From Actinomycetota bacterium (GTDB lineage Bacteria; Actinomycetota; Thermoleophilia; BMS3ABIN01): DNA of 64,000 nucleotides. The notes beneath the pieces are model-generated. The model ran no database searches. It was not told the origin of the DNA and saw only the letters and a program-made list of their open reading frames with translations. Each line of letters begins with the position of its first letter. The stretch's first letter is position 1. This document shows, piece by piece, positions 3-55,924 of this stretch. The stretch covers positions 3,629 to 67,628 of the forward strand of contig JACRMB010000004.1 of NCBI GenBank assembly GCA_016235065.1, given 5' to 3'. The position numbers and the translations under genes are program-made.

Positions 3-3000
3 TACACGACTGGTGTCCCGCTTTCGGTGCGTACCGGAGTCACTGTCAAGAACCTGACTGTATCCCAGTTCAACTACGGGATCTATCTGCTTTCGTCGAA
101 CTCGACCACACTCACCGGCAATACCGTTTCCAACAACGCCTTTGGGGTTTACGAGGTATTCTCGAACAACAGCCAGGTATTCAATAACAACTTCATCAGC
201 AACGGCATCCAGGCTTATGTGACCGGCGGCAGCGGTAACGTCTTCGATACGCCAAGCGGCGGTAACCACTGGAGCAATTACAGCACGCCAGGCCAGGGCT
301 GCGACGACAACAATGGCAACTTCGTCTGCGACGTCCAGTACACATTCACTGGCGGAATCGACCATATGCCCTGGAGAGACGCCGATGGCTGGAAATACAC
401 CCCGCCACCGGACTCGACTCCACCGAACATCACCAGCGTATTGCCAGCCGGGATAATCGAAACGAACTCTACGACGATCAGCATCGACTATAACGATCCG
501 GGAAGCAATATAAATCTGGCATCGATCTCAGTCACGCTTGATGGAGTGGCGCTTTCGGGATGCACTTCAAACCAGTCCAATACCAGTTGCCTGGTGACCG
601 GCGTGGCGCTGGGAGCCCATTCGATCGGCGGCACTCTGGAGGATAACCGTGGCAATGTCAGCCTTATAAACGGCGCCTTCAATTTCGTCGATACAACCGC
701 TCCTGCAGTAGGCACGGTTCTACCGGCGGGAACTGTCAATTCGACTTCGACGATGATCACTGCTGGTTATTCAGACGGGAGCGGTTCCGGCATCAATCCT
801 GCAACGGTAAGTGTGACCCTCGACGGTTCGCCGCTAGCTGGTTGTGCGATTGATTCGGGAAGTCTCAGCTGTGCCGTGTCAGGCCTGTCACAGGGTAACC
901 ATACAGCCGTTATCAGCGTAAGCGACGTCGCCGGCAACACCGGTACAGGCACCAGCAACTTCGCAGTGGACAGCCTGCCACCGTCAGTGTCCGCAGTATC
1001 ACCTTCCGGGACGATGACGACAGGGTCAGCGACGATCAGCGCCAGCTATTCTGACAGCCAGAGCCCGATCAACACCGGATCAGTGGTTGTTACGCTTGAT
1101 GGCACCAACCTTTCAGGATGTACGGTATCTGCCACTGGTGTCAGCTGCCAGGTCAGTAATCTGACAGTGGGTGCACATACGATCGGCGGTTCAGTCTCAG
1201 ACACCGCTGGCAACACCGCTCCCATCAGTGGCAGTTTCGTATTCTCCGACACCGTCGCTCCGACAGTAGCCAGTATCCTTCCTAGCGGAAGGATCACAAG
1301 CAATACGGCTACCCTGAGTGCAAGCTACAGCGATGGCACTGGCTCCGGCATCGACACGGGCACCGTTGCCGTGCTGCTGGATGGCAGTCCTGCAAGCGGC
1401 TGTGTTGCGGGTGCGGCGACGGTCAACTGTAACGTCAGCGGCCTGGCCGATGGCAGCCATACGCTTGCGGTCAGTGTCAATGACAGAGCGGGGAACACTG
1501 GCAGCGGAACCGGCTCCTTCACCGTGGACACGACGGGACCGGTTGTTACTCCGACTAAATACATCAGCGCCAGCGCCACCGGCGGCGACTGTCCCAGCAT
1601 CGGTGTCTGGGATGACGCGACCAAGACCTGTTTTCTCACTGGTGACTATTACTTCGCCAACAAGAACGGCATCCAGATCACAGCGAATGGAGTGACGCTT
1701 GATGGCAATGGCCACACGATATCCGGAAGCACGGCCTTCAACAGTGGCGTCTCGTATACGGTCAAGACTGGGGTCACGGTCAAGAACCTGACGGTGAAGT
1801 CGTTCAACTACGGCATCTACCAGGTCGCTTCGAACGGCAATACCATCACCGGCAACACCATCCTGTCTAACAAGAACGGCATATACATGTCGTCTTCGAG
1901 CAATAACACCATCTACGGGAATAGCATCAGCAGCAGTGTGACCCAACAGATAGTGATAGCTGGAGGAGCCGGCAACGTCTTCGATATGGCCGCACCGATA
2001 GGTGGCAACTACTGGAGCAACTTCGACACACCAGCAGAAGGCTGCAACGATCTCAACTTTGACGGTTTCTGCGACCTGCCGCTCTTATTCACAGGCGGCC
2101 AGGACAATCTTCCCAGGGTGAGCCCGCCTAACCAGTGGCTCGATATCACGCCTCCCAACGTGACCAGCGTGACGCCCTCAGGGACGATCAATGTCGATTC
2201 AACCAATATCAATATCAGCTACTTCGACATCGGTTCCGGCGTCGATACCAATACGGTTGTAGTGAGGCTTGATGGGACGACGCTGGCAGGCTGCGCGATA
2301 AGCGCCAGCAGCGCCAGCTGCCCGGTATCCGGGCTCGCCCAGGGCGCCCACACCATCAGCGGCTCGCTCGCTGACACTTCAGGCAACAGCGGTCTTATAA
2401 GCGGCAGTTTCATGGTGGAGATACTCACCGACGTCACACCGCCGGCAATAAGCAGCGTCCAGCCTTCAGGCACTATAACGACTTCAACAACTAACGTCAG
2501 CGCCAACTATACTGATTCCGGTTCAGGAATAAACAGCGCAACAGTTGCTGTTTATCTGGATGGAAGCCTGCGCGGCGGCTGCTCGGTGACCGCCAGCAGC
2601 GTCAACTGTCCCGTATCGGGTCTGGCTGACGGCGCCCACGGCATCAGCGTCAGCGTTTCTGATAACGCCGGCAACACCGGCACGGCAACTGGCTCGTTCA
2701 CAGTCTCCACCGTAGCGCCTGATACGACTCCGCCATCGGTGACCAGCGTATTGCCTTCGGGAATACAGACATCGACGAGCGCGACCATCACAGCCTATCT
2801 GAGCGACGCGGGCTCGGGAGTCAATCCCAGTTCCGTCGTCGCCAGGCTCGACGGAGTCGCCATGACCGGCTGCACCGCGACAGCCAGCTCGGTGAGCTGT
2901 CCGAAGACCGGCATCGGCCAGGGTGCTCATGCCATAAGTGTGACCGCTTCGGATAACGCCGGCAACAGCGGCACCGGCACTGGTTCATTCACGGTCGACT

Positions 3001-6000
3001 CGCTAGCGCCTTCGGTCACCGCCCTGTCGCCGACAGGCGCGCTGGCTTCACCCACTACGACCATATCCGCAAGTCTCTCAGACTCGGGTACCGGTATTAA
3101 TTCAGCAACCGCCCAAGTCTATGTCGAAGGCGGCACCGTCGGAACCTGCAACCGGACGGCCACGTCCGTCAGCTGCCAGGTATCCGGGATGGTCGACGGT
3201 ATCCACAACTACACGGTCACGGTCTCGGATATGGCTGGAAATACTGGAAGCGCTTCAGCCAGTCTGAATATCGATACCGTGGCTCCCGCGGTCTCCAATA
3301 TCCAGCCCTCGGGCACCATAACGACCTCGAGCGCGACCATAAGCGCCTACTATAGCGATACCGGCTCCGGGCTCAACATCTCGACCGCGGTAGTAACGCT
3401 CGACGGCACAGCGCTGACTGGCTGTACCCGTACTTTCTCCGGAGTCAGTTGCCCAGCCACGGGGCTCACGGACGGTATCCATAATATAAGCGTCAGTGTC
3501 CAGGACAATATCACCAACATGGGCACGGGCACCGGTTCGTTCACGGTAACGCTGCCTCAGGCTGACACGACAGCGCCTACTGTTACCAACGTGCAGCCAG
3601 GCGGCACTATTGCGACAGGTACAGCCACAATCAGTGCTTACTACAGCGATTCCGGATCGGGCATCAATAGTGCCACTGCAGCAGTGACTCTCGACGGGAC
3701 CCCGATTACTGGTTGCGTCGCATCTGCCAGCGCGGTCAGCTGCGATGCCATCGGCCTCTCCGAGGGCGCGCACAATATCACAGTCTCCGTCGCCGACAAT
3801 GCCGGGAACACTGGCACTGGCAGCGGCAGCTTCGTGGTCGACAGCGTGATACCGGTGGTAAGCAATGTGATGCCCAACCAGGCCACTAACTCCACGAGCG
3901 CTACGGTCAGCGCCTACTTCAACGACGGTTCCGGCACCGGCATCGACCCCGCTTCGGTGAGAGTCTATCTGGACGACGTACTGATGGCTGGTTGCGCGGT
4001 AAGCACTTCCGACGTCAGCTGCGCTGTCAGCGGTCTCACTGATGGATATCACTCCATCAGGGTGGATGTTCTGGACAATGCCGGCAACAGCGGCCACGGA
4101 ACTGACTCATTCCTGGTAGATACGACTATCCCGGTCATAAGCGACATCCAGCCGAGCGGCACTATCAGTACATCCGCCGCCACAGTAAGCGCGTATCTGA
4201 GCGACTCATGGAGTGACGTAAACGATACGAGCGTAGTTGTAATGCTCGATTCTGTCGCGATAACAGGATGTACGGCCACGAATACTTCCGTCAGCTGCCC
4301 GGTCACCGGCCTGGTTGACGGTTACCATACAATCGACATCTCCGTAGCTGATAACACCGGCAATACCGGTACAGGCACCGGAAGCTTCACGGTGGACACC
4401 ACAGTGCCGGACACGACGCCACCAGTGATCAATAATGTGATGCCGTCTGGCACGATTACGACGACAGGCGCCAACGTCAGCGCTTACCTCAGCGACACTG
4501 GCAGCGGCATCAACACCGCCTCGGTGAGCGTCCAGGTAGACTCCGTAGCCCTCACCGGATGCACGGTATCGGCCTCCAGCGTAAGCTGCGCCGCCACAGG
4601 CCTGGCCGAAGGCGCGCACAACATCAGCGTCACCGCCGCCGACAACGCCGGCAACTCAAGCACCAGCACCGGCAGCTTCACGGTAGACTCCATGAGCCCG
4701 ACCGTAAGCGGCCTGGCTCCGACAGGTCTCGTCAACTTGGCCGACCAGACAATAACCGCCAGCTACTCCGACTCGGGCACCGGCATTGACAGCTCCACCG
4801 CCCAGGTCTATATGGACTCCGGCGTGCTCAGCGGCTGCACAGCAACCGCAACCTCGATCAGCTGCCCGGCTGCAGGACTAGCCGAGGGAGCCCACAGCTA
4901 CACAGTGAGCGTCAGGGACACGGCCGGCAATACCGGCTCGGCTTCGGCCAGCTTCACGGTGGACTCGATCCGCCCGACGGCAGGCAATTTCGCTCCCCAG
5001 GGCTATCTGACCACGACCAGCGCCACGATCACTGCATATATCAGCGATAGCGGCAGTGGAATCGACACAGCGGCTGTCTGGGCTGCGGTCGACGGGGTCC
5101 AGCTCAGCGGCTGTACCGTAACCACATCATCAATATCCTGTCCGGCCACCGGGCTTGCGGAAGGCCATCACATCGTCAGCGTCCGCGTGCAGGATATGGC
5201 CAACAACGGCGACATATACTTCTGGGGTATAGATGTTGACTCCCTGGCGCCGTCCGTGACCGGCCTTTCACCTTATGGGTCGCTCGCTTCACCGATAACA
5301 CGGATATCAGCCAGCTTAAGTGACTCCGGTTCGGGAATAGACAGCGCTACCGCCCAGGTCTATGTAGAAGGCGGTACGGTCTCGAACTGCAGCGCGAGTG
5401 CCACTTCCATCAGTTGTGATGTAGCCGGCATGGCTGACGGCGTCCATTACTACACGGTCAGCGTCAGCGACCTGGCCGGCAACACCGGCACAGCCTCAGC
5501 CAGCCTGCATGTTGACACTGTGGCGCCGACAGTCAGCAATATCCAGCCCAGCGGTACTATCACAACCGATAACGCGACTATCAGCGCCTACTACAGTGAC
5601 GCCGGCGTCGGGCTCAACATATCGACCGCCGTGGTCACCCTGGACGGAACCGCGCTGACCGGCTGCACCCGGACTTTCACCGGAGTCAGCTGCCCGGCCA
5701 CCGGACTTGCCGATGGCGTGCATAACATCACTGTCAGCGTCCTTGATAACATCACCAACGTGGGCACCGGCACCGGCTCGTTCACCGTCGCCATTCCTCA
5801 GGCAGACACGACGGCGCCTTCGGTGACCAATGTCCAGCCAACGGGCACGGTAACGACGGGCACGGCTACGATCAGCGCTGATTACAGCGACGCCGGCAGC
5901 GGCATCAACGCTGCCACAGCCAGGGTATACCTGGACGGAACAGCGCTGACAGGCTGCACGGCTACCGCGACATCGGTTAGCTGTCCAGCATCGGGCCTGA

Positions 6001-7088
6001 CTGAGGCCGTTCATAATATCAGCGTCTCAATCGCTGACAACGCCGGCAACACCGGCACCGGCACCGGCTCGTTCACGGTGAATCTGCCTGACACGACGCC
6101 GCCTTCGGTGACGAACATCCTGCCGAGCGGCACCATAACGACCAGTGCGGCAACTGTCTACGCTTACTACAGCGATACTGACAGCGGCATCAACTCCGCC
6201 ACCGCAAAGGTCTACCTGGACGGCACGGCGTTAACCGGCTGTACAGCGACAGCAACCGGCGTCAGCTGCCCGGCAACGGGTCTCGCCAACGGCGTCCATA
6301 ACATCAGCGTCAGAGTCGCCGACAACGCCGGCAACACCGGCACAGGCACCGGTTCCTTCACGGTCAGCCTGCCGTCATGTACGACCGATTACACCGACGC
6401 CAGCGGCGCGTCCATCTCGGTCTACAGCGATTCGTCATATACGACCAAGGTCTGCCAGCAGACCCAGCTGACTCCAAACACGAACTACTACGTGCAGCTG
6501 ACACATCCGACGATGAACCTGTCGTCGGAAGGCACGAACAGGAACCGAATGAGGATGTACAACCTTATGGGAACCCAGGTGAACTACGGTGACGGCACGA
6601 ACGAGAAGACGTTCACCCAGCAGTCAGGCGGAGCACCGTACCGGTACCGCACGACCTTCCGGACTCCGTCCACGGCCGACATCTACACGCTGGAGCCCAG
6701 CCTGCGGAACAACGCCCAGACCAAGCAGGTCACGATATATGGATGGATGACCAAGGTCGGCAATTCAGCCAGCTATGTGGCTACCTATTCTGACGCCGCC
6801 TATTCGGTCTACACTGATACGTTCGCTCCTGGAGCCACGGTCTACGTGCAGATGTACAGCGCCAGCTTCAGCGACGGCACTCCGACCACGTCGGCTACTT
6901 CGATCAACAGCTACGACTTTGCCGCGGCCTCTACCGTGCTGTCGGAGAGCTCTGTGAGCAGGATCGCCTCAAAGACGTACAGGACCGCGTTCACGATGCC
7001 GAGCGGCACCGGAGACCGCGGATTCCGGCTCAGCATATCCAGCGGAAGTACACTGGCAAGACCTGAATTCCTGCTGAACAGGCAGTAA
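3..7088 (+). CDS. giant secreted surface protein, 5' partial at window edge: two parallel beta-helix modules each followed by arrays of ~95-aa Ig-like domains (about 20 copies), plus a distinct ~230-aa C-terminal domain
   Basis: ORF 27..7088 is open to the window start and its first residues (TGVTVKNLTVSQFNYGIY) repeat an internal segment (KTGVTVKNLTVKSFNYGIY, ~aa 570), so the true start lies upstream. Beta-helix signature NNxFxxNGIxxY/GNxIxxN; Ig-like unit PSGTIxTxxATISAxYSDxGSGIxxATxxVxLDGxxLxGCxxxxxxVSCxxxGLxxGxHxIxVxVxDxAGNxGxGxGSFxVD with two conserved Cys. Confidence 0.8.
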   Translation, partial: YTTGVPLSVRTGVTVKNLTVSQFNYGIYLLSSNSTTLTGNTVSNNAFGVYEVFSNNSQVFNNNFISNGIQAYVTGGSGNVFDTPSGGNHWSNYSTPGQGCDDNNGNFVCDVQYTFTGGIDHMPWRDADGWKYTPPPDSTPPNITSVLPAGIIETNSTTISIDYNDPGSNINLASISVTLDGVALSGCTSNQSNTSCLVTGVALGAHSIGGTLEDNRGNVSLINGAFNFVDTTAPAVGTVLPAGTVNSTSTMITAGYSDGSGSGINPATVSVTLDGSPLAGCAIDSGSLSCAVSGLSQGNHTAVISVSDVAGNTGTGTSNFAVDSLPPSVSAVSPSGTMTTGSATISASYSDSQSPINTGSVVVTLDGTNLSGCTVSATGVSCQVSNLTVGAHTIGGSVSDTAGNTAPISGSFVFSDTVAPTVASILPSGRITSNTATLSASYSDGTGSGIDTGTVAVLLDGSPASGCVAGAATVNCNVSGLADGSHTLAVSVNDRAGNTGSGTGSFTVDTTGPVVTPTKYISASATGGDCPSIGVWDDATKTCFLTGDYYFANKNGIQITANGVTLDGNGHTISGSTAFNSGVSYTVKTGVTVKNLTVKSFNYGIYQVASNGNTITGNTILSNKNGIYMSSSSNNTIYGNSISSSVTQQIVIAGGAGNVFDMAAPIGGNYWSNFDTPAEGCNDLNFDGFCDLPLLFTGGQDNLPRVSPPNQWLDITPPNVTSVTPSGTINVDSTNINISYFDIGSGVDTNTVVVRLDGTTLAGCAISASSASCPVSGLAQGAHTISGSLADTSGNSGLISGSFMVEILTDVTPPAISSVQPSGTITTSTTNVSANYTDSGSGINSATVAVYLDGSLRGGCSVTASSVNCPVSGLADGAHGISVSVSDNAGNTGTATGSFTVSTVAPDTTPPSVTSVLPSGIQTSTSATITAYLSDAGSGVNPSSVVARLDGVAMTGCTATASSVSCPKTGIGQGAHAISVTASDNAGNSGTGTGSFTVDSLAPSVTALSPTGALASPTTTISASLSDSGTGINSATAQVYVEGGTVGTCNRTATSVSCQVSGMVDGIHNYTVTVSDMAGNTGSASASLNIDTVAPAVSNIQPSGTITTSSATISAYYSDTGSGLNISTAVVTLDGTALTGCTRTFSGVSCPATGLTDGIHNISVSVQDNITNMGTGTGSFTVTLPQADTTAPTVTNVQPGGTIATGTATISAYYSDSGSGINSATAAVTLDGTPITGCVASASAVSCDAIGLSEGAHNITVSVADNAGNTGTGSGSFVVDSVIPVVSNVMPNQATNSTSATVSAYFNDGSGTGIDPASVRVYLDDVLMAGCAVSTSDVSCAVSGLTDGYHSIRVDVLDNAGNSGHGTDSFLVDTTIPVISDIQPSGTISTSAATVSAYLSDSWSDVNDTSVVVMLDSVAITGCTATNTSVSCPVTGLVDGYHTIDISVADNTGNTGTGTGSFTVDTTVPDTTPPVINNVMPSGTITTTGANVSAYLSDTGSGINTASVSVQVDSVALTGCTVSASSVSCAATGLAEGAHNISVTAADNAGNSSTSTGSFTVDSMSPTVSGLAPTGLVNLADQTITASYSDSGTGIDSSTAQVYMDSGVLSGCTATATSISCPAAGLAEGAHSYTVSVRDTAGNTGSASASFTVDSIRPTAGNFAPQGYLTTTSATITAYISDSGSGIDTAAVWAAVDGVQLSGCTVTTSSISCPATGLAEGHHIVSVRVQDMANNGDIYFWGIDVDSLAPSVTGLSPYGSLASPITRISASLSDSGSGIDSATAQVYVEGGTVSNCSASATSISCDVAGMADGVHYYTVSVSDLAGNTGTASASLHVDTVAPTVSNIQPSGTITTDNATISAYYSDAGVGLNISTAVVTLDGTALTGCTRTFTGVSCPATGLADGVHNITVSVLDNITNVGTGTGSFTVAIPQADTTAPSVTNVQPTGTVTTGTATISADYSDAGSGINAATARVYLDGTALTGCTATATSVSCPASGLTEAVHNISVSIADNAGNTGTGTGSFTVNLPDTTPPSVTNILPSGTITTSAATVYAYYSDTDSGINSATAKVYLDGTALTGCTATATGVSCPATGLANGVHNISVRVADNAGNTGTGTGSFTVSLPSCTTDYTDASGASISVYSDSSYTTKVCQQTQLTPNTNYYVQLTHPTMNLSSEGTNRNRMRMYNLMGTQVNYGDGTNEKTFTQQSGGAPYRYRTTFRTPSTADIYTLEPSLRNNAQTKQVTIYGWMTKVGNSASYVATYSDAAYSVYTDTFAPGATVYVQMYSASFSDGTPTTSATSINSYDFAAASTVLSESSVSRIASKTYRTAFTMPSGTGDRGFRLSISSGSTLARPEFLLNRQ
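2995..3700. repeat. intragenic segmental duplication, copy A (~0.7 kb, two Ig-like domains)
   Basis: Encoded segment SLAPSVTALSPTGALASP...GSFTVTLPQADTTAPTVTNVQPGG is near-identical in protein and closely similar in DNA to copy B. Confidence 0.6.
5236..5945. repeat. intragenic segmental duplication, copy B
   Basis: Encoded segment SLAPSVTGLSPYGSLASP...GSFTVAIPQADTTAPSVTNVQPTG; long runs of identical nucleotides with copy A. Confidence 0.6.
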
Positions 7089-45021: not shown

Positions 45022-45068
45022 ATATCATACTTGTGCGTGTAGTTCTTTCTGCTGCCGAAGGTAGGGAT

Positions 45069-45275
45069 ATGAAGAGAACGGCAGCAATCATGGTGCTTCT
45101 TACGGTACTTGTCTCAACGAGCTTGCTTGTTCCGGCGGCAGCGCTGGCTATCGACAGCTCCCTTTCCTGGCCTGTCCGGGGCTTCGATTATCCATCCTGG
45201 TGGCACGACGAATACCTGGATCAAAGTTCCAGCGTCTCCCTGACCCGCATCGCTTCAACCGGATCGAATGCCTAG
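45069..45275 (+). pseudogene. possible truncated remnant of a secreted enzyme (signal peptide plus ~40 aa only)
   Basis: MKRTAAIMVLLTVLVSTSLLVPAAALA followed by SWPVRGFDYPSWWHDEY, then stop. Confidence 0.2.
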
Positions 45276-45397
45276 ATGGCGCAGGAGACAGGCACAGATT
45301 CCCGGATGGGCAGCAGGTATAAAAAACGAGTTAAAGGGTAGGATACCGGTGTCTTTACCCCTGCCATTAATGGCCCTGGTGAGCCGGAGGACAGGAA

Positions 45398-45613
45398 ATG
45401 ATCAGCAGGCTTCTGGATATCTGCATTGGTGCTATGTTGGTCGCTCTGGTGGCACTGACTGCGCAGCTCGCGTATCTCTACATCCAGCCCGCGGAACTCC
45501 AGGCCGAGCAACTCGCACAGAGGACTTCATCGCATCCAGTGGTTAACGGTCAGGTGATCAGCGAGATGCCTACGGCTGAGTGCATGGTCTGTCACGCCGG
45601 CAGTCTGCCCTAG
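45398..45613 (+). CDS. small TM protein ending in a CxxCH motif (possible N-terminal fragment of a NapC/NrfH-like cytochrome)
   Basis: One TM helix then ...TAECMVCHAGSLP-stop; resembles the membrane anchor plus first heme site of NapC/NirT-type cytochromes but terminates immediately. Confidence 0.2.
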   Translation: MISRLLDICIGAMLVALVALTAQLAYLYIQPAELQAEQLAQRTSSHPVVNGQVISEMPTAECMVCHAGSLP

Positions 45614-45637
45614 CGCTTCCATTCTCGCTATCAACCA

Positions 45638-46186
45638 GTGAGGTGCGTCATTAAGTCGAGCTGCATCAATGCTATTTCCGGATTATTCCTGCTTGTGGCC
45701 CTGCTCTTTGTGCTTGCACTAGCCGGTGAGGCCCAGGCGCAGACGGCGCCTGTGTGCGGCTCCGCCGGCACGCCCACTCCCGGGAGCCTGCATGCCTCGT
45801 TACTGCGGGAACCCCTGTATAACAGCGAAGGCAATTTTCTCAGCATTTCTTGGGAAGGCGCCATTCCACCTATGGAAATATGGATAGATGACGCGCTTTC
45901 CGAAATCACATACGTAAGCAATGGCGGCTCTGGACAGGCCCGAAACGAGCCCGAAACTGCGACGCACGTGGTGGCATTCATCACGCAGGGATACGCGCCA
46001 GTGTGCATAGAGGTGGCTGTCAGTCCTTCAGTGACCCAGGACGCCTATCCCGCAGCGCAGCAGGGCGAGTCTGTGCTACCGTCGACAGGTTTTGACACCA
46101 TCATGTTGCTCGCAGGCCTGTTGACATCCTTGGCTGGTGTCTTTCTGCTGCACCAACGAGCGCAATCACGAGAAAACCCTTTCTAG
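45638..46186 (+). CDS. small secreted protein with C-terminal LPSTG cell-wall sorting signal
   Basis: Signal peptide; C-terminus LPSTGFDTIMLLAGLLTSLAGVFLLHQRAQSR (LPxTG, hydrophobic span, basic tail). Confidence 0.6.
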   Translation: MRCVIKSSCINAISGLFLLVALLFVLALAGEAQAQTAPVCGSAGTPTPGSLHASLLREPLYNSEGNFLSISWEGAIPPMEIWIDDALSEITYVSNGGSGQARNEPETATHVVAFITQGYAPVCIEVAVSPSVTQDAYPAAQQGESVLPSTGFDTIMLLAGLLTSLAGVFLLHQRAQSRENPF

Positions 46187-46197
46187 GAAGGAAATCC

Positions 46198-46254
46198 TGG
46201 TGCCGAAGGTGGGAATCGAATCCACACCGGGGGTGACCCCGACCGGATTTTGAG
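46198..46254 (-). repeat. 57-bp copy of the 3' half of tRNA-Leu(CAA) (anticodon loop to 3' end), candidate distal att site
   Basis: Identical to 50970..51026 except one mismatch; the 5' half of a tRNA is absent here. Confidence 0.75.
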
Positions 46255-46416
46255 TTACGCGTCCGACTTCCCGGTTGTCAACTTAAAGTCCCAGAATAGC
46301 GCTGTAAATTTTGGTTTCAATGCTACGCGCTTCACGGCTTATGCTATCCCTTACTGCTTGGTCCCACGAATTTGGTTGGCAAAATTTGGTGGAAATGAGG
46401 TGAACAAGCAGGAATA

Positions 46417-49400
46417 TCACAAACCTGCACCGACCAACTCGTTGAAGTAGCCTTTCCACAGTACCCTCTGCGAAGCTAGCACATTTGCGGGATTCTCTTT
46501 TGATGACCCGTTCCATTGCCAGGCTCTGACCTGAACGGGTCCGCCGATGATGCCGGGGAAGCGCGGCGTTACTCGCTGGCCGGGCGCCAATACGCCGTGG
46601 TTGGTCGAGTAATAAGGATCTGCGGGATTGGCTGGATCGAGTTTGCCAGGCACTGAGATCTCGTAATAAATAGCGCTAGCGTTCGGGTTTGCGACTAGCA
46701 CCCAGTTGAGCGAGCCGGCCGATTTTTCGTCATACCAAGTCCAGTTCGCGGTTGGTTTAAGGCTATTTAGCGGCACGCCGGCAGTCTCCTCGTAAGAAGG
46801 CCCATAGATCACGATTTGGGAAGTATATATGTTAGCCGGACTGTAACAAGCCTCAGTGGTGTCAAAACAGGCCTTGACCTCAATCGGGCCGTCCATCAAT
46901 TTTTGCGGTGAGCTATCCCACCAAATGGTCGTGCCCGATGGAACGCCGTCGCTACTGGCCATCAGTTGACCGTGCAGGTAAAGAAAAAGATAAACAGGCT
47001 CGGAGTTGGGATTGCCGACAATGACTAGGTCGTTTGCGTTTTGGCTGTCATACCATGGCCACTCGTATTCGTTGCTCAATTTCGAGGCCGCGATGCCGGC
47101 CATTTCGTTAAACGAGTCACCCATCAGGATACGTTCCGAGGCGACGACCTTGCGAGCATCCGCAGAATTATTGGGCGAGCCACCGACCCGGTAGGCTTTG
47201 ACCTCAACTGGTCCACCGCTGTAGGGCCAGGTTGGCGTCCAGGTATCACCCGGCTGGATCACATGCCTATTAACGTAGATATCCGGCACAGGTATTTTGT
47301 TGATGTCTTCAACATTTCGTATAGAAATGTCAACCTCGACAGCTTCCCCATTTTCGGCCGGATTTGCAACCAGAACCCATTCAGAAGTCATGCTGCCGAG
47401 GTAGACCGGCCAATAATAGTGCGTGTCGAGATCATCGTATGAAGTGGACCAGACTTCCTCGAAAGAGTTTCCGAACAGCGAACGCTCGCTCGAGATGCCG
47501 TTACCATACTGGGACATGATCTTGATCGGGCCGCCGAGTCTTTTGTCGTACGAGCGGAACTGCGTTTCCCCATCATTGACACCGATGCCTTGTTCAAGAG
47601 AGTTGGTCTTCATCCAGAAGTCGACGATATTCGTTCCACTGCCAGGCATTTGCGCTGCTAGCAGCCACGTATGACCATAGATATTGTCATACCAGGGGAA
47701 GTAATAATGCATCGGGGTCGAGTATGACCAGTCAGCGGTCTGGGTATTGCCTACAACGTCGCTCACTTCAAGGTGCACGTTTTGAATGCCACAATTAGGA
47801 TTGAAATAAGAGACTTGGTCAACAGAAATCGTTGCCCGAGAAGTAACGACGATTCCATTCACAGTCAGCTTGACTGAATTCGGATTGACTCCCGACTTCG
47901 AGTCAGTATAAGAAGCATTGATTATTGCCGTGCTGGCCCAAACGTTTCCACTCGGGCTCGTTCCTCCTATTTCAGGTTTTGTCGTTTCGACTTCGAAGCT
48001 GCCATTAAGGGTCGCGCTGTTGCCAGCTTTGTCTCGCCCGACTATCAAGAAATCATGGTGTCCGTCTGAAAGGCCCGACGCCTGGCACCTCAACAGAGAT
48101 GAATCAGAGATATCGCAATTGGTAAGCGGCTGGCTGCTACCATCCAGATAAACCGCGCTTGCGGAGCTGTCTGGCCCCGATTGCTGATCGCTCAAAGTTG
48201 CACCGATTACGGTCGCGCTGCCGCTCCAGACTGGAGGAATGGCTTCGGAAATCGCAGGGGGCGCGAGGTCGACGCCGAATGGTGAGTCAGACAGCCCCGG
48301 CGTTCCGTCATTAGTCTCATACGAGATCGTTAGAGAGTGCCAGCCTGCAGAAAAGTCTGAAGTTGAGCAGCTGAGATGAGCGCCGACGAGCGAGCAGCCA
48401 GGCGCTGAGGTATCGTCGATATAAACGGCTACACTGCTCGAATCGATACCCGAACCGTTATCCGTTAGGTCCGCTTCAATCGCTTGGCTGGTCGTACGGA
48501 GCCAGCCTGAAGGGGAGATGTTTTGCGCTTGGAGAACCAGTGGTCCCCATGATGGGGTGATTCGTTCATAAAAAGGATGGCCCAAATCCGCAATGTTGTA
48601 ACAGCCTCCACCCGTTGCTCTTGCTGTGCAAAGAGTGCAGTTGTTGGAGTTATCTTTTTGGATAAATGCAATACTGGTACCATCCGGTGACCACGCGGGT
48701 TGACTATAAAATGGGGACCATGTCCATGTTCGTGTAATCACGGGTTGTGGTTGTGTGCCATCGGGCTTCATCGTATAGATTCCCGAGTCATTTGCATTGA
48801 AATAAACGTAACAGGCAATTTTGGAAGAATCAGGCGCCCAGCTTGGCATCGAATTGAAACTGGCTGGCCATCCATAGACGTTAAGAGCGGTCTGGTTTCC
48901 ACCATCGGGATTAATAAAAAAGATTCCATAAGTACCACTGTTGGCGTTGAAGGCGATCCTGGAACCGTCTGGTGACCAAGCAGGATTCTCGTAGGTACCC
49001 GAATTATTAGTCAGTTGATTCAGCTCACTTCCGTCGGAATTCATTACGTATAGCTTCTGAACACCGAAGCCAACGATTCCAAACGTCCTCGTAAAAGCTA
49101 TGCGGGAACCGTCGGGCGACCAGGTGGGGCTGTCATCGTAATTCGAGCCGAAGGTCAGCTGACTTATGCTCATATCCGATAGTCTGAGAACGTAAATCTT
49201 ATTAGTACCATTTCTGTTGCTGGAAAAAGCTATCTTGCTGCCGTCAGGCGAGAAGGCGGGTGACTGTTCGACCGCGGGGCTATTGGTGATACGAGTTAGG
49301 CCGCTGCGGTCAGGATTTACAGTGTATATCTCAGCATTGCCATCCCTATAAGAAACAAAAGCAATCTTGCCGTTTGGTTTTACAGTGGCATCCGCTGAGG

Positions 49401-49542
49401 ACGACATGGCCAGGATGGCGATTACTGAGAAGAGGAAGATAAACGCAAATGAGGATTTTTGGCGTGCGCTTTCAACGAACCCACCCATTGCGCCTCCAGA
49501 ATCTGGCATATCTGAGAGAAGCTTAATTGAAACGATTGCCAA
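46417..49542 (-). CDS. secreted surface protein: TolB-like beta-propeller, two-Cys Ig-like domains, and four copies of the shared C-terminal repeat module
   Basis: N-terminal signal; GKIAFVSYRDGNAEIYTVNPDRSG-type PD40 blades; Ig-like domains with GC...C pattern; C-terminal repeats (about 46420..47715) with FPWYD, WVLVANP and ASQRVLW. Confidence 0.8.
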   Translation of the reverse strand: MAIVSIKLLSDMPDSGGAMGGFVESARQKSSFAFIFLFSVIAILAMSSSADATVKPNGKIAFVSYRDGNAEIYTVNPDRSGLTRITNSPAVEQSPAFSPDGSKIAFSSNRNGTNKIYVLRLSDMSISQLTFGSNYDDSPTWSPDGSRIAFTRTFGIVGFGVQKLYVMNSDGSELNQLTNNSGTYENPAWSPDGSRIAFNANSGTYGIFFINPDGGNQTALNVYGWPASFNSMPSWAPDSSKIACYVYFNANDSGIYTMKPDGTQPQPVITRTWTWSPFYSQPAWSPDGTSIAFIQKDNSNNCTLCTARATGGGCYNIADLGHPFYERITPSWGPLVLQAQNISPSGWLRTTSQAIEADLTDNGSGIDSSSVAVYIDDTSAPGCSLVGAHLSCSTSDFSAGWHSLTISYETNDGTPGLSDSPFGVDLAPPAISEAIPPVWSGSATVIGATLSDQQSGPDSSASAVYLDGSSQPLTNCDISDSSLLRCQASGLSDGHHDFLIVGRDKAGNSATLNGSFEVETTKPEIGGTSPSGNVWASTAIINASYTDSKSGVNPNSVKLTVNGIVVTSRATISVDQVSYFNPNCGIQNVHLEVSDVVGNTQTADWSYSTPMHYYFPWYDNIYGHTWLLAAQMPGSGTNIVDFWMKTNSLEQGIGVNDGETQFRSYDKRLGGPIKIMSQYGNGISSERSLFGNSFEEVWSTSYDDLDTHYYWPVYLGSMTSEWVLVANPAENGEAVEVDISIRNVEDINKIPVPDIYVNRHVIQPGDTWTPTWPYSGGPVEVKAYRVGGSPNNSADARKVVASERILMGDSFNEMAGIAASKLSNEYEWPWYDSQNANDLVIVGNPNSEPVYLFLYLHGQLMASSDGVPSGTTIWWDSSPQKLMDGPIEVKACFDTTEACYSPANIYTSQIVIYGPSYEETAGVPLNSLKPTANWTWYDEKSAGSLNWVLVANPNASAIYYEISVPGKLDPANPADPYYSTNHGVLAPGQRVTPRFPGIIGGPVQVRAWQWNGSSKENPANVLASQRVLWKGYFNELVGAGL

Positions 49543-49715
49543 TGATAACTGTAATAAGTGGCTTAGTCAAAATTCTGAGATCTGGCAATAAGCTAAGAAT
49601 GACCCATTATTGAAGCCCAATCATTGTAACGTCGTGCTACGCGGCTCATTAATCACCAGGGTCCGGGCGACCGCTGTCGACGACTATCTCTAGTTCTCCC
49701 ACACTATGATTGTTC

Positions 49716-49944
49716 TCAGGCGGCAGACAGCTTTCTTACCTTGAGATTCTTGCGATTCTGTTCGGCCAGCCACAGATCGTACTGCGTCTGCTGATTGAGC
49801 CAGCTCTCCGCCGAAGCTCCGAAGGCTATCGAAAGCCGTATAGCCATTTCCGGACTGATCCCAGCCCGGCCGTTGAGAATTGCCGAAAGCGTCTTGCGGC
49901 TGACACCGAGAGCATCCTACGCCCTTCAAGAACTTCTCGGGCAT
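49716..49944 (-). pseudogene. higA-like (HTH_XRE) antitoxin gene disrupted by frameshift / internal deletion
   Basis: One frame gives the start MPEKFLKGV...; a second frame, entered after in-frame stops, gives [53 protein letters not shown], a typical HigA HTH core; no toxin ORF in the adjacent 235 bp. Confidence 0.55.
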
Positions 49945-50181
49945 TCAGACCCTAAACAACGATGGTCTATGTGACAAGCCCAGGTTTTTGATGCCAGTCC
50001 ATAGTTTAGGCCGGGCGTCTGTATGTGAGAGGAACCTGGGATGATATACCGTTGGCAGGCCGATTTCGGCTTAAACGGAACCCCTGACTCTTCCCTTAAA
50101 GCGAAGTATGCCGGTAATCACCACAAAAATATCGAGGACGCACCGGGTGCGCCCTCGGGCTAATCAGTTTATCTGATGCTG

Positions 50182-50688
50182 CTAGGCCTTACGGCGATTC
50201 TTCCTGAAGGTCGCTGCCCCCAAACCACCCAGAACCAGCCCTGCCGCCGGCAATAGCAGCATGAAGCCCGTGCTAGGCAGAGTGGCGGGCAATGAAGCTG
50301 GTGCGTATGCGTTCTGTTGCACGCTCTCTGTCACAGTGAAAGTCTCCGGGCACGCAATATCAATATCTTCGCTATCTGTTCCTTCAACGATGATGTTGTG
50401 GCTGCCCACAACAGCATCGGCTGGTATTGTCAGGACATCATTGAAATTTCCGGAGCCGTCACTAGTCGTTATGCCCAGTAGTGTAGTGCCGCTGACAGTG
50501 TCAAAGAACAATCCTAATAAATCACTGCTCCTTGCCCCGGAACCGCTATAGCTAACAGAGCTCCCGGCTGGCCCCTGGTTGGGGGTCAGGGTGAAACTTA
50601 CAGTGCCGCACGCGCTTTGAGCATAGGCCATGGGAGCTAAGGCAAGCGTAAAAAATATAGCTACAACTAATGCGACAACTTTCTTCAT
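50182..50688 (-). CDS. small secreted protein with C-terminal LPSTG cell-wall sorting signal
   Basis: Signal peptide MKKVVALVVAIFFTLALAPMAYA; C-terminus LPSTGFMLLLPAAGLVLGGLGAATFRKNRRKA. Confidence 0.6.
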   Translation of the reverse strand: MKKVVALVVAIFFTLALAPMAYAQSACGTVSFTLTPNQGPAGSSVSYSGSGARSSDLLGLFFDTVSGTTLLGITTSDGSGNFNDVLTIPADAVVGSHNIIVEGTDSEDIDIACPETFTVTESVQQNAYAPASLPATLPSTGFMLLLPAAGLVLGGLGAATFRKNRRKA

Positions 50689-50969
50689 GATGATTCCCCT
50701 TCTCCGTTTGTCCAGAATGATTTCGGTCCTGTTTTTTTAATTTTTTTGCCGGCAGCTAATCAAGGTCGGCAAACCAAAAAAATTATTTGACCATTGTATA
50801 CTTATTTCCCCTGGATGATATAAAACTGGCGATAGCCAGAGAGGTGGCTGGGTTTGTTTGGACAGCAAAATGCTTTTTTATAAGTGGCAAGAAGTCCCCT
50901 GTTCATGCCGTCATCTCATTGGCGAGCGTAGGGCAATAGACCTCATCTGGTGTTCTCCTGCTCAGATTC

Positions 50970-51058
50970 TGGTGCCGAAGGTGGGAATCGAACCCACACC
51001 GGGGGTGACCCCGACCGGATTTTGAGTCCGGCGCGTCTGCCAGTTCCGCCACTTCGGC
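50970..51058 (-). tRNA. tRNA-Leu (anticodon CAA), CCA encoded
   Basis: Minus-strand sequence GCCGAAG-TG-GCGGAACTGGCAGACGCG-CCGGA-CTCAAAA-TCCGG-long variable arm-TGGGTTCGATTCCCACCTTCGGCACCA; 7-bp acceptor stem pairs GCCGAAG/CTTCGGC; anticodon loop CUCAAAA; long variable arm (class II). Confidence 0.85.
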
Positions 51059-51124
51059 ACAGTCAAGCGGGGTGGAGCGATGAATGCTCCAGACGGATTC
51101 TACAATATCGGCGAGTTAAAGGCT

Positions 51125-52204
51125 CTAACCTTTTACCGCCCAGACGTGGAACTTCGCGTATCCCTTGTGCCCGACACCGACTGCACCCTTGTTCATATAT
51201 AGAGCCCAGGCCCAGTCCGGCTCGAACATGCTCGTGGTCGAGGACCAGTAAACTTCCTGGCATTTCCTGAACGGATGGCCGCCCGGCAGCGCCGGATCAT
51301 GCCGGCTCATGTCCACCAGCGATTCCAGTTCATTGATATTGGGGAGCCGCCAGATGTCATAGTCGCGCCGGGAATTCCGCAGACGGTTGCGCCCTGCACG
51401 AAACGCTGAATCGTCTTCAGCAGCATCAAACTTTCTGATAGCATCGAGTGCTTCTTCCCATAAAACCGGCTCTCCGGTCAGATCTGCCACACGCTGCCAG
51501 GTCAGGCCCGTCAGGTTGTCGCGGACTGCATCGCCGCCGCCGTATTTATTACCAGCGCCACCCCTGCGGATCGTGCTGTCGCCGTTCTCAACAGGCCCAA
51601 CCTCAAAACGCGGCTCAGGCCAGCTCGCGCCGAAGGGTGAATCACCCTGTTGCCCTGTCGCCGGCAGCACTCCATTGCCCTCGCCACGCACTGGCCAGAC
51701 AAGGTAGTACTGGTTCCTGGCTCCATAGAACGTGCGCCCACCTTCCATATGCACATACCAGGCAAATGCGTCGTCGATGGCTGCCTTGGTCGACGACCAG
51801 TACCATCCCATGAAGACGTTAATAAATGGATGGCCTTCAGGCAGAGCCGGATTCCTCGTCTGGTGGCTTATGAGACTCCTTAGCTCGCGCCGGTCGGGCA
51901 GACGCCAGTCGTCGAAACCATGCTGCCGCTCCCGGTTCATCCGCCTGATGAACTCATGGGCTTCCGCCCAGTCCATGGGAAACTCGCTGGGATCGGCGTC
52001 ACGGGTCCAGACGAGGCCGGTGAGAAGATCGGTCACGGTCCCGCCGCCTTCGGACTCAGCCGCCCTTACCTCGAATCGCGGTTCCGGCCAGGCGACGCCC
52101 CGCGGGAACTCGGCATCCTGACCGCTGCCATCGCAATCGATCCGCCGGCCGCCGGCATCGTGGCAGGATGTCTGTCCCGTCTGCAGAAATCCTTTAATAT
52201 CCAT
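51125..52204 (-). CDS. DUF1566 (Lcl C-terminal-like) domain protein, two tandem copies
   Basis: Twice-repeated TGLxWxR...W.EA...DWRLP...EL.SL...P...F...YWSST...AW...M. Confidence 0.65.
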   Translation of the reverse strand: MDIKGFLQTGQTSCHDAGGRRIDCDGSGQDAEFPRGVAWPEPRFEVRAAESEGGGTVTDLLTGLVWTRDADPSEFPMDWAEAHEFIRRMNRERQHGFDDWRLPDRRELRSLISHQTRNPALPEGHPFINVFMGWYWSSTKAAIDDAFAWYVHMEGGRTFYGARNQYYLVWPVRGEGNGVLPATGQQGDSPFGASWPEPRFEVGPVENGDSTIRRGGAGNKYGGGDAVRDNLTGLTWQRVADLTGEPVLWEEALDAIRKFDAAEDDSAFRAGRNRLRNSRRDYDIWRLPNINELESLVDMSRHDPALPGGHPFRKCQEVYWSSTTSMFEPDWAWALYMNKGAVGVGHKGYAKFHVWAVKG

Positions 52205-52566: not shown

Positions 52567-52721
52567 AATCACAGTGATCTGAAGCCTGGTATCTCATTGC
52601 GAGGCCTGATTCAGATCTGATGCTGACAGCCTGATTCATAATTTCCCCAGCCTGTGCCTGTGTGCAATCGCAGGCTTTTTTTATTTTAACGGGCAACAAA
52701 CGGTGGGGCAGGGAGTCTGAC

Positions 52722-54260
52722 ATGAAAACGATCAGAGCGTTTTGCTTTCTGGGGATAGCAGCGGGCGTGTTTTTTGCCATTGTGGCTTCCGCCATGGCAT
52801 TGCAGGCCACGAATGTAGCGGTGAGCCGCGTTGCTTCAACATCCGCAGTCATTGTAGTCAAGGCGGATACAGTCGCTGATGTAAGGATCGATTATGGCTC
52901 GGCGCCTGGCGTTCTCACCTCGTCAAAAACCAGCTCTGCACTGGTCAGACATGAGATTCTGCTCGACAGCCTTTCGCCCTCATCCACGGTCTATTATCAG
53001 GTCACTATCACTGATAGCGCCAATCCGGCAATAACGAGCACCCTGGCGGAAAAGAGCTTCCATACAGCTCGCTCAAGCGGCCAGCCGTTCAGTTTTGCGG
53101 TAGCTGCGGACAATCGTCCTGCGAGCAACACCACAGTGCAGCCGGCTGCCTGGGGCACGATCAACAGCCAGATGGCCGCTGAGGGCCTGGACCTGGTTTT
53201 AAACGCCGGGGACCTCATATACGGGCTTCCCTCTGATACGCTTGACCAGAATGTCGCCAAATATGATGGTTTCTTTGCGGTCACGGCGCCGCTCACGGCT
53301 TCTGTCCCCATGTACACCGCCATCGGCAATCACGAGTACGCAGGTAGCGCCGGCAGCCGTGCCGGTTATGAGCAGGAATTCACCCTGCCCGTGAATAACG
53401 GTATTGACGCCGCTACCAGCGGCGAGCACTACTACAGCTTTGATAATGGCGACACCCACTTCGTCGCCCTGTCTACCGAAATCCCCGGGCAGGAAGGGAT
53501 GATCACAGGCAATCAGCGGTTATGGCTTACGCAGGACCTGGTTGCGAACAACAAGCCCTGGACCGTCATCTTCATGCACCGGCCGCTCTATTCCGGCATC
53601 CATATGACTGAACCCTGGATGAATACCAGTAACCTCGCGGGGCAGCAGAACAAGGCTGAGATCCATGCATTGTTCCTGCAATACGGCGTTGATGTCGTCT
53701 TTGAGGGGCACGATCATTTTTACCTGCGGCACGTGGAGGATGGTATCCAGTATGTCATCACTGGCGGTGGCGGTTCACCACTATACTGGGCACCGGCTCT
53801 CAAGCCTGGTGATGTCTTTGCCTGGAGCGGTTATGAACACGTCAAAGTCGACGAAACGGCAAGCTCGCTTAAACTGAGCGCCATCGATACGACCGGTTTC
53901 GTCCAGGAGAGTTTTACACTGGGAACCCCGGCCCTCAGTCTTTCACAGACAAGGACTTACTGGGCCTCATACGCCGATTATCTTATCCGTGACCTGTCCG
54001 TGGACTACTCGCTGTCCAATACGGGAACCGGGGATGCGGCCGGGTTGCAGGTCGTTTACCTGAATTCGACGAATGGCGTACTGCCTTTGACCAGCGTACC
54101 GGCATCCCTGGGAAACGTGGCTGTGGGAGCCGGCGCCTCGATGACAGTACACTACCAGGTTCCCAATGATGTCTTATTGTTCCGTTCTACTATCTATGTG
54201 ACCTGCACCGATCTTGCGGGGGGATCATACGCCTTCCCTGGTCCAGCCCCTGTGTTTTAA
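52722..54260 (+). CDS. secreted metallophosphoesterase, purple acid phosphatase-like (paralog 1)
   Basis: Signal peptide; GDLIYG (GDxxY), IGNHEY (GNHE), MHRPLYS, FEGHDHFY (GHxH) phosphoesterase motifs; N-terminal FN3-like domain. Confidence 0.75.
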   Translation: MKTIRAFCFLGIAAGVFFAIVASAMALQATNVAVSRVASTSAVIVVKADTVADVRIDYGSAPGVLTSSKTSSALVRHEILLDSLSPSSTVYYQVTITDSANPAITSTLAEKSFHTARSSGQPFSFAVAADNRPASNTTVQPAAWGTINSQMAAEGLDLVLNAGDLIYGLPSDTLDQNVAKYDGFFAVTAPLTASVPMYTAIGNHEYAGSAGSRAGYEQEFTLPVNNGIDAATSGEHYYSFDNGDTHFVALSTEIPGQEGMITGNQRLWLTQDLVANNKPWTVIFMHRPLYSGIHMTEPWMNTSNLAGQQNKAEIHALFLQYGVDVVFEGHDHFYLRHVEDGIQYVITGGGGSPLYWAPALKPGDVFAWSGYEHVKVDETASSLKLSAIDTTGFVQESFTLGTPALSLSQTRTYWASYADYLIRDLSVDYSLSNTGTGDAAGLQVVYLNSTNGVLPLTSVPASLGNVAVGAGASMTVHYQVPNDVLLFRSTIYVTCTDLAGGSYAFPGPAPVF

Positions 54261-54373: not shown

Positions 54374-55924
54374 ATGATTGCTGGCAGGTCGAATATCATG
54401 CTTTTCCCGGTTGCAGCGCTGATCCTTACCGTGCTGTTCCTGCTGACTGCGGCAGCCCCGGCATCCGCTGTCACCGCGATGAATGTCGCCATAAGCGATG
54501 TCGCCTCCACTGAAGCCGTACTGGTCGTGAAAGCAGATGTAACCGCGGATGTTACCGTGGATTACGGCCAGTCGACCGGAGTCTACACAGCCACAGCAAC
54601 GAGCAATGGCGCCACCAGGCATGAACTTACGCTTTCCGGCCTAAATCCGTCATCTGTGGTCTATTACCGGGTCACCATCTACGACAGCTCGGATCATGGT
54701 GTCAGCATCACGATCACGGAAAAGAGCTTCCACACCAGCCGGGCCGCAGGCGAGCCTTTCAGTTTCTCCGCTGCCGGTGATAACCGGCCTACTTCCGATA
54801 CCGCCGTTCAGCCGGCAATGTGGAACACGATCCTCGGGCAGATGGCGGGGGAGAGCCTGGACCTCTCGCTTCACGTCGGCGATATCATCTTCGGGACCAG
54901 CAGCGACAGCCTGGCTCAGAACGTGGCCAAGTATGATGGACTGTTCGCGGTGACCGCCCAGCTGACTTACTCGACGCCGATGTATGTAGCGGCAGGTAAC
55001 CACGAGCGGCTCTACGCCGCCAGCAGCCGCGCCGGTTATGAGCAGGAGTTCACCTTCCCGGTCAATAACGGCGCGGATTCCGGTACTTACGGCGAGCACT
55101 ATTACAGTTTCGACAACGGCGACACCCACTTCATCGCCCTGTCCACTGAGCTTCCCGGGCAGGAAGGGCTGATCACCGGCAACCAGAAGGCCTGGCTCGA
55201 ACAGGATCTTGCCGCAAGCAGCAAACCCTGGACCGTCGTCTTCATGCACAGGCCCCTGTTCTCCGGCCAGCATGGCGGCGACCCCTGGGTGAATACCGGT
55301 AATGCCACCGGCCAGCAGAACAAGGCGGATATCCACGCGCTGTTCCTGCAGAGCGGGGTCGACGTAGTCCTCGAAGGGCATGATCATTATTATCTGCGGC
55401 ATGTTGAGGATGGCATCCAGTACATCATCACTGGCGGCGGCGGCTGTTCACTGTCTGGAGTCCCGGCGCTCGGCCCTGGGGATGTATTCGCATCCAGCAG
55501 CTACGAGCATGTGAAAGTCGACGAGACTTCCACTTCGCTGGGGTTCGATGTGATCAATAGTGCCGGCGCCACCCTGGAGAGTTTTTCCGTGGCCATCCCC
55601 GACCTGTCACTCACGCTCGGTAACGCCTACTGGGAAAGCTACGCTGACTATCTCAGCCGCTCGCTCAGCGTCGACTATACCCTCACAAACAGCGGCGCCG
55701 GCGATGCTTCCTCGCTGCAGGTGCTGTCGCTTTCCGCCTCACAGGGTGTCACGCCGCTGACGGCCACGCCTTTCTCGCTGCCCGACGTCGCCGCTGGGGC
55801 AACGGGCACGATGACGGTGAGCTACCAGCTGCCCCAGGGTGTGGAAGCCTTTGCGGCCACGGCCACGGCTTCATGCACTGATGACCGCGGGTTCACCTAT
55901 CAGTATCCCGGATCGGACCTGTAG
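54374..55924 (+). CDS. secreted metallophosphoesterase, purple acid phosphatase-like (paralog 2)
   Basis: Same motif set (GDIIFG, AGNHE, MHRPLFS, LEGHDHYY); collinear with paralog 1. Confidence 0.75.
   Translation: MIAGRSNIMLFPVAALILTVLFLLTAAAPASAVTAMNVAISDVASTEAVLVVKADVTADVTVDYGQSTGVYTATATSNGATRHELTLSGLNPSSVVYYRVTIYDSSDHGVSITITEKSFHTSRAAGEPFSFSAAGDNRPTSDTAVQPAMWNTILGQMAGESLDLSLHVGDIIFGTSSDSLAQNVAKYDGLFAVTAQLTYSTPMYVAAGNHERLYAASSRAGYEQEFTFPVNNGADSGTYGEHYYSFDNGDTHFIALSTELPGQEGLITGNQKAWLEQDLAASSKPWTVVFMHRPLFSGQHGGDPWVNTGNATGQQNKADIHALFLQSGVDVVLEGHDHYYLRHVEDGIQYIITGGGGCSLSGVPALGPGDVFASSSYEHVKVDETSTSLGFDVINSAGATLESFSVAIPDLSLTLGNAYWESYADYLSRSLSVDYTLTNSGAGDASSLQVLSLSASQGVTPLTATPFSLPDVAAGATGTMTVSYQLPQGVEAFAATATASCTDDRGFTYQYPGSDL

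Follow-up and report, generated by a model that had tools for sequence, protein, structure and literature searches.

Genes and repeats at the tRNA-Leu locus

The window, by which we mean the whole 64-kb stretch of DNA that was analysed, carries a tRNA-Leu(CAA) gene on the minus strand at 50970..51058 (ARAGORN; Rfam RF00005, 60.7 bits), and nothing besides this tRNA was matched by Rfam between 44.8 and 52.4 kb. The 3' part of the tRNA, from the anticodon loop to the CCA end, forms one copy of a 62-nt direct repeat (D2; 50966..51027, minus strand), and a pseudo-tRNA 3' half at 46194..46255 on the same strand forms the other. The two att-like copies are 60/62 (97%) identical, with a spacing of 4772 nt. 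Between them lies an islet of ~4.7 kb (46256..50965), bounded on one side by the tRNA gene as the putative integration target and on the far side by the pseudo-tRNA. Its GC content is ~0.48-0.55 vs ~0.56-0.66 in the flanks. Pfam analysis of gene content revealed no integrase inside or adjoining the islet and no transfer genes inside it, and identified the neighbors as LVIVD, Lcl_C, and Metallophos proteins.

Three items make up the islet content, all on the minus strand. The largest is a gene for a PD40/Tricorn-like beta-propeller protein of 1,041 aa (46417..49542; Pfam PD40, E 1e-36), the product of which matches the Tricorn_N and Tricorn_2nd families when searched as the identical protein of contig L002. 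The gene contains periodic DNA repeats with spacings of 132-285 nt (D1) and ~320-350 nt (D3), consistent with beta-propeller blades and Ig-like modules, and close relatives of the protein were not found beyond the identical Logan contig. Upstream of it lies the remnant of a higA antitoxin gene (higA'), and upstream of that a gene for a 168-aa secreted protein with an LPSTG sortase-type anchor (50182..50688). This LPXTG protein lacks a Pfam match and is rare, with 5 homologues in the protein database. Pairwise comparison showed it to be a distant paralogue (28% identity, E 2e-5) of the product of a plus-strand gene at 45638-46186, which stops 8 nt short of the 46194 att copy and is oriented opposite to the gene inside the islet. 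Both LPXTG proteins have a signal peptide, a Cys in the N-terminal region, the LPSTG sortase motif, a hydrophobic tail, and basic residues.

Several further sequence features were recorded around the islet. At 45047-45068, just past the gene for the LVIVD-repeat protein, 22 nt match (82-86%) the start of the tRNA-Leu 3'-half repeat and could represent a third att copy, much decayed, at the edge of an older islet (45069-46193); the alignment fails beyond these 22 nt, and a third copy is unproven. A decayed att copy after the higA stop (49543-49715) was sought and scored at chance level. The repeat spacing of 4772 nt also prompted a comparison of 45.0-46.2 kb with 49.8-51.0 kb, and in-register paralogy of the two regions was rejected on the basis of blastn and tblastx. 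On the same strand, the heptamer TGTTCTC (GAGAACA when read on the minus strand) is found at 49709-49715, the 3' border of higA', and at 50949-50955, ~12 nt from the tRNA-Leu 3' end; this pair, seen post hoc, may represent rearrangement microhomology or chance. At 50826-50850, ~120 nt downstream of the tRNA-Leu gene and before the promoter region of the LPXTG gene, a hairpin with T-runs on either strand resembles a bidirectional terminator. Outside the islet, Metallophos (calcineurin-like phosphoesterase) genes form tandem paralogues at 52662-54260 and 54374-55924 (two are also present in L006 and one in L001 and L007), and a very large plus-strand ORF of 2,353 aa (27-7088) occupies the left end of the window.

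A CIME is a decayed ICE or IME that keeps attL and attR but has lost the integrase and transfer genes, and CIMEs often form tandem accretions at tRNA genes (PMC5704250). The islet resembles such elements in its tRNA 3'-end direct repeats, its lower GC, the lack of an integrase, and its content of cargo genes only, and in relatives the same tRNA-Leu has higBA and brnTA units in tandem, each bounded by repeats. It differs in that neither a cognate integrase nor a parent ICE/IME was found and in that the units of the relatives are unusually small (0.65-0.8 kb, one toxin-antitoxin operon each). Overall, the islet looks like a horizontally acquired, decayed integrative element of the CIME type, the mobilization of which is putative. 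The initial annotation had rightly placed the antitoxin remnant inside an islet.

Identity of the higA remnant and its 5' breakpoint

The remnant extends over 49716..49916 on the minus strand and comprises codons D30 to A95 and the TGA stop of a 95-aa HigA antitoxin. As read from the translation, the peptide runs for 66 residues from 49916 to the TGA at 49718-49716. A profile search matched it to TIGR02607 (HigA family addiction module antitoxin, NCBIfam) at E 7e-20, with a score of 70.6 bits that exceeds the cutoff of 47.7. This match covers profile positions 29-81 of 81, with positions 1-28 absent; that to Pfam HTH_3 spans positions 17-52 of 55, with positions 1-16 absent. When an intact HigA was used as the tblastn query against the window, the hit (E 1e-40) was 100% identical over 66 aa. 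The same peptide was found in a collection of 5.8 billion proteins as the C-terminal 66 residues, again at 100% identity, of proteins of either 95 or 106 aa. These proteins, which include P0001 and P0002, are annotated as HigA at their source and belong mostly to Thermoleophilia/Actinobacteria MAGs. The initial reading of the gene as a HigA-family antitoxin was therefore confirmed. In the translated search for HigA and HigB that the initial annotation had proposed, tblastn with full-length HigA and HigB recovered HigA residues 30-95 alone, both from the islet region (46000-51200) and from the whole window, and neither HigB nor the HigA N terminus was seen.

The intact 95-aa HigA was aligned to solved relatives, namely GraA (6F8S/6F8H) and the HigA proteins of E. 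coli CFT073 (2ICP), P. aeruginosa (6JPI), and P. vulgaris (4MCX). As these alignments cover residues 1, 4, or 5 to 80-91, the lost stretch (residues 1-29) is part of the structured, conserved region. In the fold known from the solved GraA and HigA proteins, it makes up helix 1 and the greater part of helix 2, the first helix of the HTH. Thus, the retained 66 residues are those of an annotated HigA of the type II HigBA class (TIGR02607, HTH_3/XRE fold) and score above the family cutoff, whereas higA' differs from a working member in having no start codon, no N-terminal helix, no complete HTH, and no adjacent toxin. Judged by its sequence, higA' is a pseudogene fragment of the HigA family rather than a working member. 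With an incomplete HTH, it cannot give rise to a DNA-binding antitoxin, and neutralization of HigB or repression of the operon by any such product is unlikely given the loss of the HTH and the N terminus.

The remnant is also an orphan, as originally noted. Neither Pfam nor tblastn detected HigB-like sequence in the 64-kb window, all frames of 46000-51200 included, and no second HigA was present elsewhere in the window. Expression signals were similarly lacking. A strong intrinsic-terminator-like hairpin on the minus strand at 50133..50157 (11 pairs, 8 of them G-C, followed by the T-run ATATTTTTGT) ends the LPXTG gene upstream of higA', and no promoter-like site was found between this hairpin and 49916. 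The first in-frame start within higA' is Met53 (49847), which opens a 43-aa ORF (49716..49847) without an HTH.

To define the 5' breakpoint, the window was compared with nine closely related intact loci (L001, L004-L007, and L092-L095), to which it is 81.7-90.5% identical at the DNA level. Homology is bounded at 49916, the first base of codon D30, and the start of homology lies at or inside this position in all related loci compared, including the five intact loci against which the 5' junction itself was aligned. No DNA alignment extended past 49916 among the nine intact loci, 80 loci of GTDB species representatives, and one Thiolapillus plasmid HigA. At the 3' side, homology ends at the higA stop codon or a few nucleotides away (49715/49716 or 49720, with a gapped alignment of L094 reaching 49702). 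Directly upstream of codon 30, the higA frame is closed by stops within 49917..49928 on the minus strand (TAG at 49919-49917 and TGA at 49928-49926).

The DNA on either side of higA' is unrelated. Between the break and the LPXTG gene lies a 265-nt spacer (49917..50181, minus strand) in which tblastn and permutation tests revealed no higB remnant. Alignments of the spacer to higB and the 5'-terminal 87 nt of higA, taken from five intact loci, scored at chance level, with 98-280 of 300 dinucleotide shuffles scoring equal or higher. The last 90 nt of the spacer, which hold the MPEKFLKGV codons, likewise gave a shuffle-level local alignment to higB and the 5' part of higA. Against 85 related loci, blastn returned a single sub-threshold match for the spacer (31 nt, E 0.03). 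A string within the region, 'L*GKSQGFRLSRNRPANGI', was considered as a remnant of the HigB C terminus and was unsupported by Pfam or tblastn.

These data bear on the view in the initial annotation that the gene is frameshifted, that is, that a full-length higA with MPEKFLKGV as its original N terminus was broken by a frameshift together with a short internal deletion, or perhaps by a sequencing error. The annotation was right that the MPEKFLKGV start and the HTH core are in different frames and are separated by in-frame stops (ATG at 49944; stops at 49919-49917 and 49928-49926). An ATG ORF does begin 28 nt upstream of the homology, and its 'P-E-.-FL' pattern loosely resembles the HigA motif HPGE(V/I)LRE. 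However, the true HigA N terminus consists of 29 different residues, unrelated to MPEKFLKGV, and tblastn gave no N-terminal match; in local DNA alignments of this stretch to the 5' part of higA from five relatives, the top score was at or below the shuffle mean. Reconstruction of a frameshift by global and local DNA alignment of 49917-50181 to five loci was accordingly rejected, as all alignments were at chance level (300 dinucleotide shuffles each). The ORF itself (84 aa, 49690..49944, minus strand) overlaps higA' out of frame, lacks a Pfam match, and received no gene call on the identical contig L002; on these grounds it is a spurious, chance ORF and not a remnant of the HigA N terminus. What is absent is the whole of higB and 29 higA codons (87 nt), instead of the ~15 residues previously estimated, and with 87 nt missing, no single-base correction or indel can restore higA. 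We therefore consider the frameshift explanation extremely improbable. By all of the sequence comparisons made, higA is sharply truncated at its 5' end, with the break at codon 30.

A second artifactual origin would be a chimera, in which the 201-nt patch was joined by metagenome misassembly at a sequence shared between strains. The window is apparently derived from a MAG, the patch has sharp borders at both ends, and the higA family, being highly conserved and widespread, is a typical source of chimeric joins. Against this, identical contigs were recovered from two other sequencing runs (L002 and L003): the Logan assembly of SRR12113407 is 100% identical to the window over 4773 nt and spans both junctions, and that of SRR12113397 is 100% identical over 49874-50998 and spans the 5' junction. 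In addition, the DNA identity of the patch to the nearest intact copies is only 88-90%, so no known co-occurring strain shares it as a repeat. A chimera is thus very unlikely. Together with the 87 missing nucleotides, the same two assemblies also render moot the suggestion that a sequencing error created the lesion.

Intact higBA cassettes at the same site in relatives

The right flank of the islet (Metallophos, PPDK, PhoU_div, HisZ/G/D) is syntenic with L001, L006, and L007, so the window represents the same chromosomal site as these loci. Among relatives that share this synteny, the content at tRNA-Leu differs. A PF05015 HigB gene is called directly upstream of higA in L001, L005, L006, L094, and L095, and L004 and L007, although without a higB gene call, have an intact HigB-like reading frame upstream; higA directly downstream of the toxin gene is the toxin-first order typical of higBA. 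In the relatives, the intact higB-higA pair forms a unit of ~0.65-0.8 kb between two copies of the tRNA-Leu 3' half. At all eight loci at the att site (8/8), higA converges on a tRNA-Leu copy, either a repeat or the tRNA itself, with 2-8 nt separating its stop codon from the CCA end. L001 and L007 carry an extra brnTA unit, bounded likewise by tRNA-Leu repeats.

Toxin-antitoxin units with ~60-nt copies of the tRNA-Leu(CAA) 3' half were recorded at L001:9634-11224, L007:7673-9257, L006:280-1204, and L094:1437-2329, and in L092 and L093. They stand in tandem beside the real tRNA-Leu, with no integrase within 8-10 kb. Together, these units look like a mini-cassette array that arose by accretion and decay or by mobilization in trans.

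Linkage to a tRNA is not a general property of this HigA family. Any tRNA was found nearby at only 3 of 80 GTDB loci, by which general linkage was ruled out and the association is lineage specific. The subfamily (L012-L091) retains 76-84% protein identity across Gammaproteobacteria, Binatia, Nitrospira, Rokubacteria, Acidobacteriota, Chloroflexia, and Actinobacteria; antitoxins are rarely so well conserved, which implies that the subfamily has spread horizontally both widely and recently. Searches of phage and plasmid collections gave one plasmid match to HigA (Thiolapillus, annotated HigA) and no phage match.

In contrast to the cassettes of all relatives, higA' lies ~1 kb from the tRNA-Leu and in the opposite orientation. 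Because of this distance and direction, it is not a simple product of decay in place, and at least one further event or an independent origin is needed. It may have arrived with the islet as cargo, or a local inversion may have followed the deletion. In the latter case, higA' would be the remnant of a cassette that once abutted the tRNA-Leu. A deletion would have joined codon 30 to the DNA that follows the LPXTG gene, and the segment ~49716-50966 would then have been inverted. Undoing such an inversion restores the geometry seen at 8/8 related loci at the att site, with the higA stop 2-8 nt from the CCA end, and makes the 168-aa LPXTG gene read toward the tRNA, just as its 28%-identical paralogue (45638-46186, plus strand) reads toward the other att copy. 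The 10 nt beside the tRNA (50957-50966) also align weakly with the higA end and spacer of L093 and L094, although this similarity is short and was examined post hoc. The inversion would, however, require two rearrangements, and no inverted repeats were present at the proposed endpoints and no intermediate genome was found. We regard an in situ remnant followed by inversion as a possible but somewhat unlikely history, with carriage as islet cargo as its alternative.

No relative closer to the broken state was recovered. The exact higA' junction had no match in GTDB species representatives, and none of the loci of P0003, P0006, and P0007 exceeded 90.5% DNA identity to higA'. A relative of the islet from before the deletion was not found through homologues of the LPXTG protein (n = 5) or by a metagenome scan, which gave one short partial match; a 40%-identical LPXTG homologue sits in an unrelated Wood-Ljungdahl gene cluster.

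Age, history, and meaning of the loss

The reading frame of higA' was compared codon by codon with those of its relatives. Over 66 codons, L004/L005 are separated from higA' by 19 synonymous changes (dS 0.55) and L001 by 24, in both cases with 0 nonsynonymous changes. The comparison with L006/L007 yielded 24 synonymous changes and 1 nonsynonymous change, the latter private to L006/L007. As no change was seen over ~149.5 nonsynonymous sites, neutral drift since the loss would amount to no more than ~0.02 substitutions per site (95% upper bound 3/149.5). The divergence of the att repeats, identical at 60/62 positions, is of the same order as this bound. Because of the lack of nonsynonymous changes and the near identity of the repeats, we infer that the truncation is recent and that the remainder is as yet undecayed. 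The initial annotation had described a decaying toxin-antitoxin module of an old, degrading mobile element; a broken toxin-antitoxin relic is indeed what remains, but the absence of nonsynonymous changes and the 60/62 repeats speak against an old and degrading one.

Perfect amino acid conservation would also be expected from purifying selection on a piece that is still useful. Such a residual role could be played by the 43-aa Met53 peptide, which might act through the dimerization/C-terminal region of HigA against a HigB encoded elsewhere, or by higA' as an RNA or DNA regulatory element. The ratio of 0 nonsynonymous to 19-24 synonymous changes and the presence of the 43-aa ORF at 49716..49847 would fit this idea. 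A recent deletion, though, predicts the same conservation and is in keeping with the 97%-identical att repeats. Moreover, the HTH is destroyed, a terminator lies just upstream with no promoter-like site, no Rfam match or gene call coincides with the fragment, no HigB is present in the 64-kb window, and the truncated junction is absent from GTDB species representatives. Retention of higA' for a residual role is hence most improbable. In our assessment, higA' is very probably a nonfunctional, 5'-truncated higA pseudogene fragment and the last trace of a higBA module.

A single deletion probably accounts for this loss. In one illegitimate event, higB would have disappeared along with the 5'-terminal 87 nt of higA. 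In a toxin-first operon, a deletion of this kind would remove the module without releasing the toxin, as the toxin at no time outlasts the antitoxin. Once the toxin was gone, the remaining higA' would have been neutral and awaiting decay.

Chromosomal integron arrays carry toxin-antitoxin cassettes. The tRNA-Leu units of the relatives are similar in that single toxin-antitoxin operons form short units split by a repeated sequence resembling a recombination site, and this likeness fits the idea that toxin-antitoxin modules persist in and stabilize variable regions. The repeats here, in contrast, are tRNA-Leu 3' halves, the usual target of the tyrosine integrases of islands and phages, and not attC, and neither an IntI-type integrase nor attI is present. 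It is conceivable, though doubtful, that the tRNA-Leu(CAA) locus is an integron-like array in which single higBA and brnTA operons (0.65-0.8 kb) and small cargo islets, each set between ~60-nt tRNA 3'-half repeats and without an integrase of its own, are inserted, excised, and swapped in trans by a tyrosine integrase encoded elsewhere. If so, the inverted higA stub would be a scar of cassette turnover and not of slow decay.

For annotation, higA' is best recorded as a higA pseudogene fragment, an ordinary relic, and not as a frameshifted gene or an antitoxin. The repeat-bounded, single-operon toxin-antitoxin cassettes at tRNA-Leu fit the known CIME/accretion model and may be of use for studies of island accretion. 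The genome appears to have parted recently with a higBA module that is still present in its relatives at this tRNA-Leu hot spot. That the toxin and the 5' end of the antitoxin are gone together agrees with the expectation that a toxin-antitoxin module is safely lost only if the toxin goes first or simultaneously with the antitoxin.
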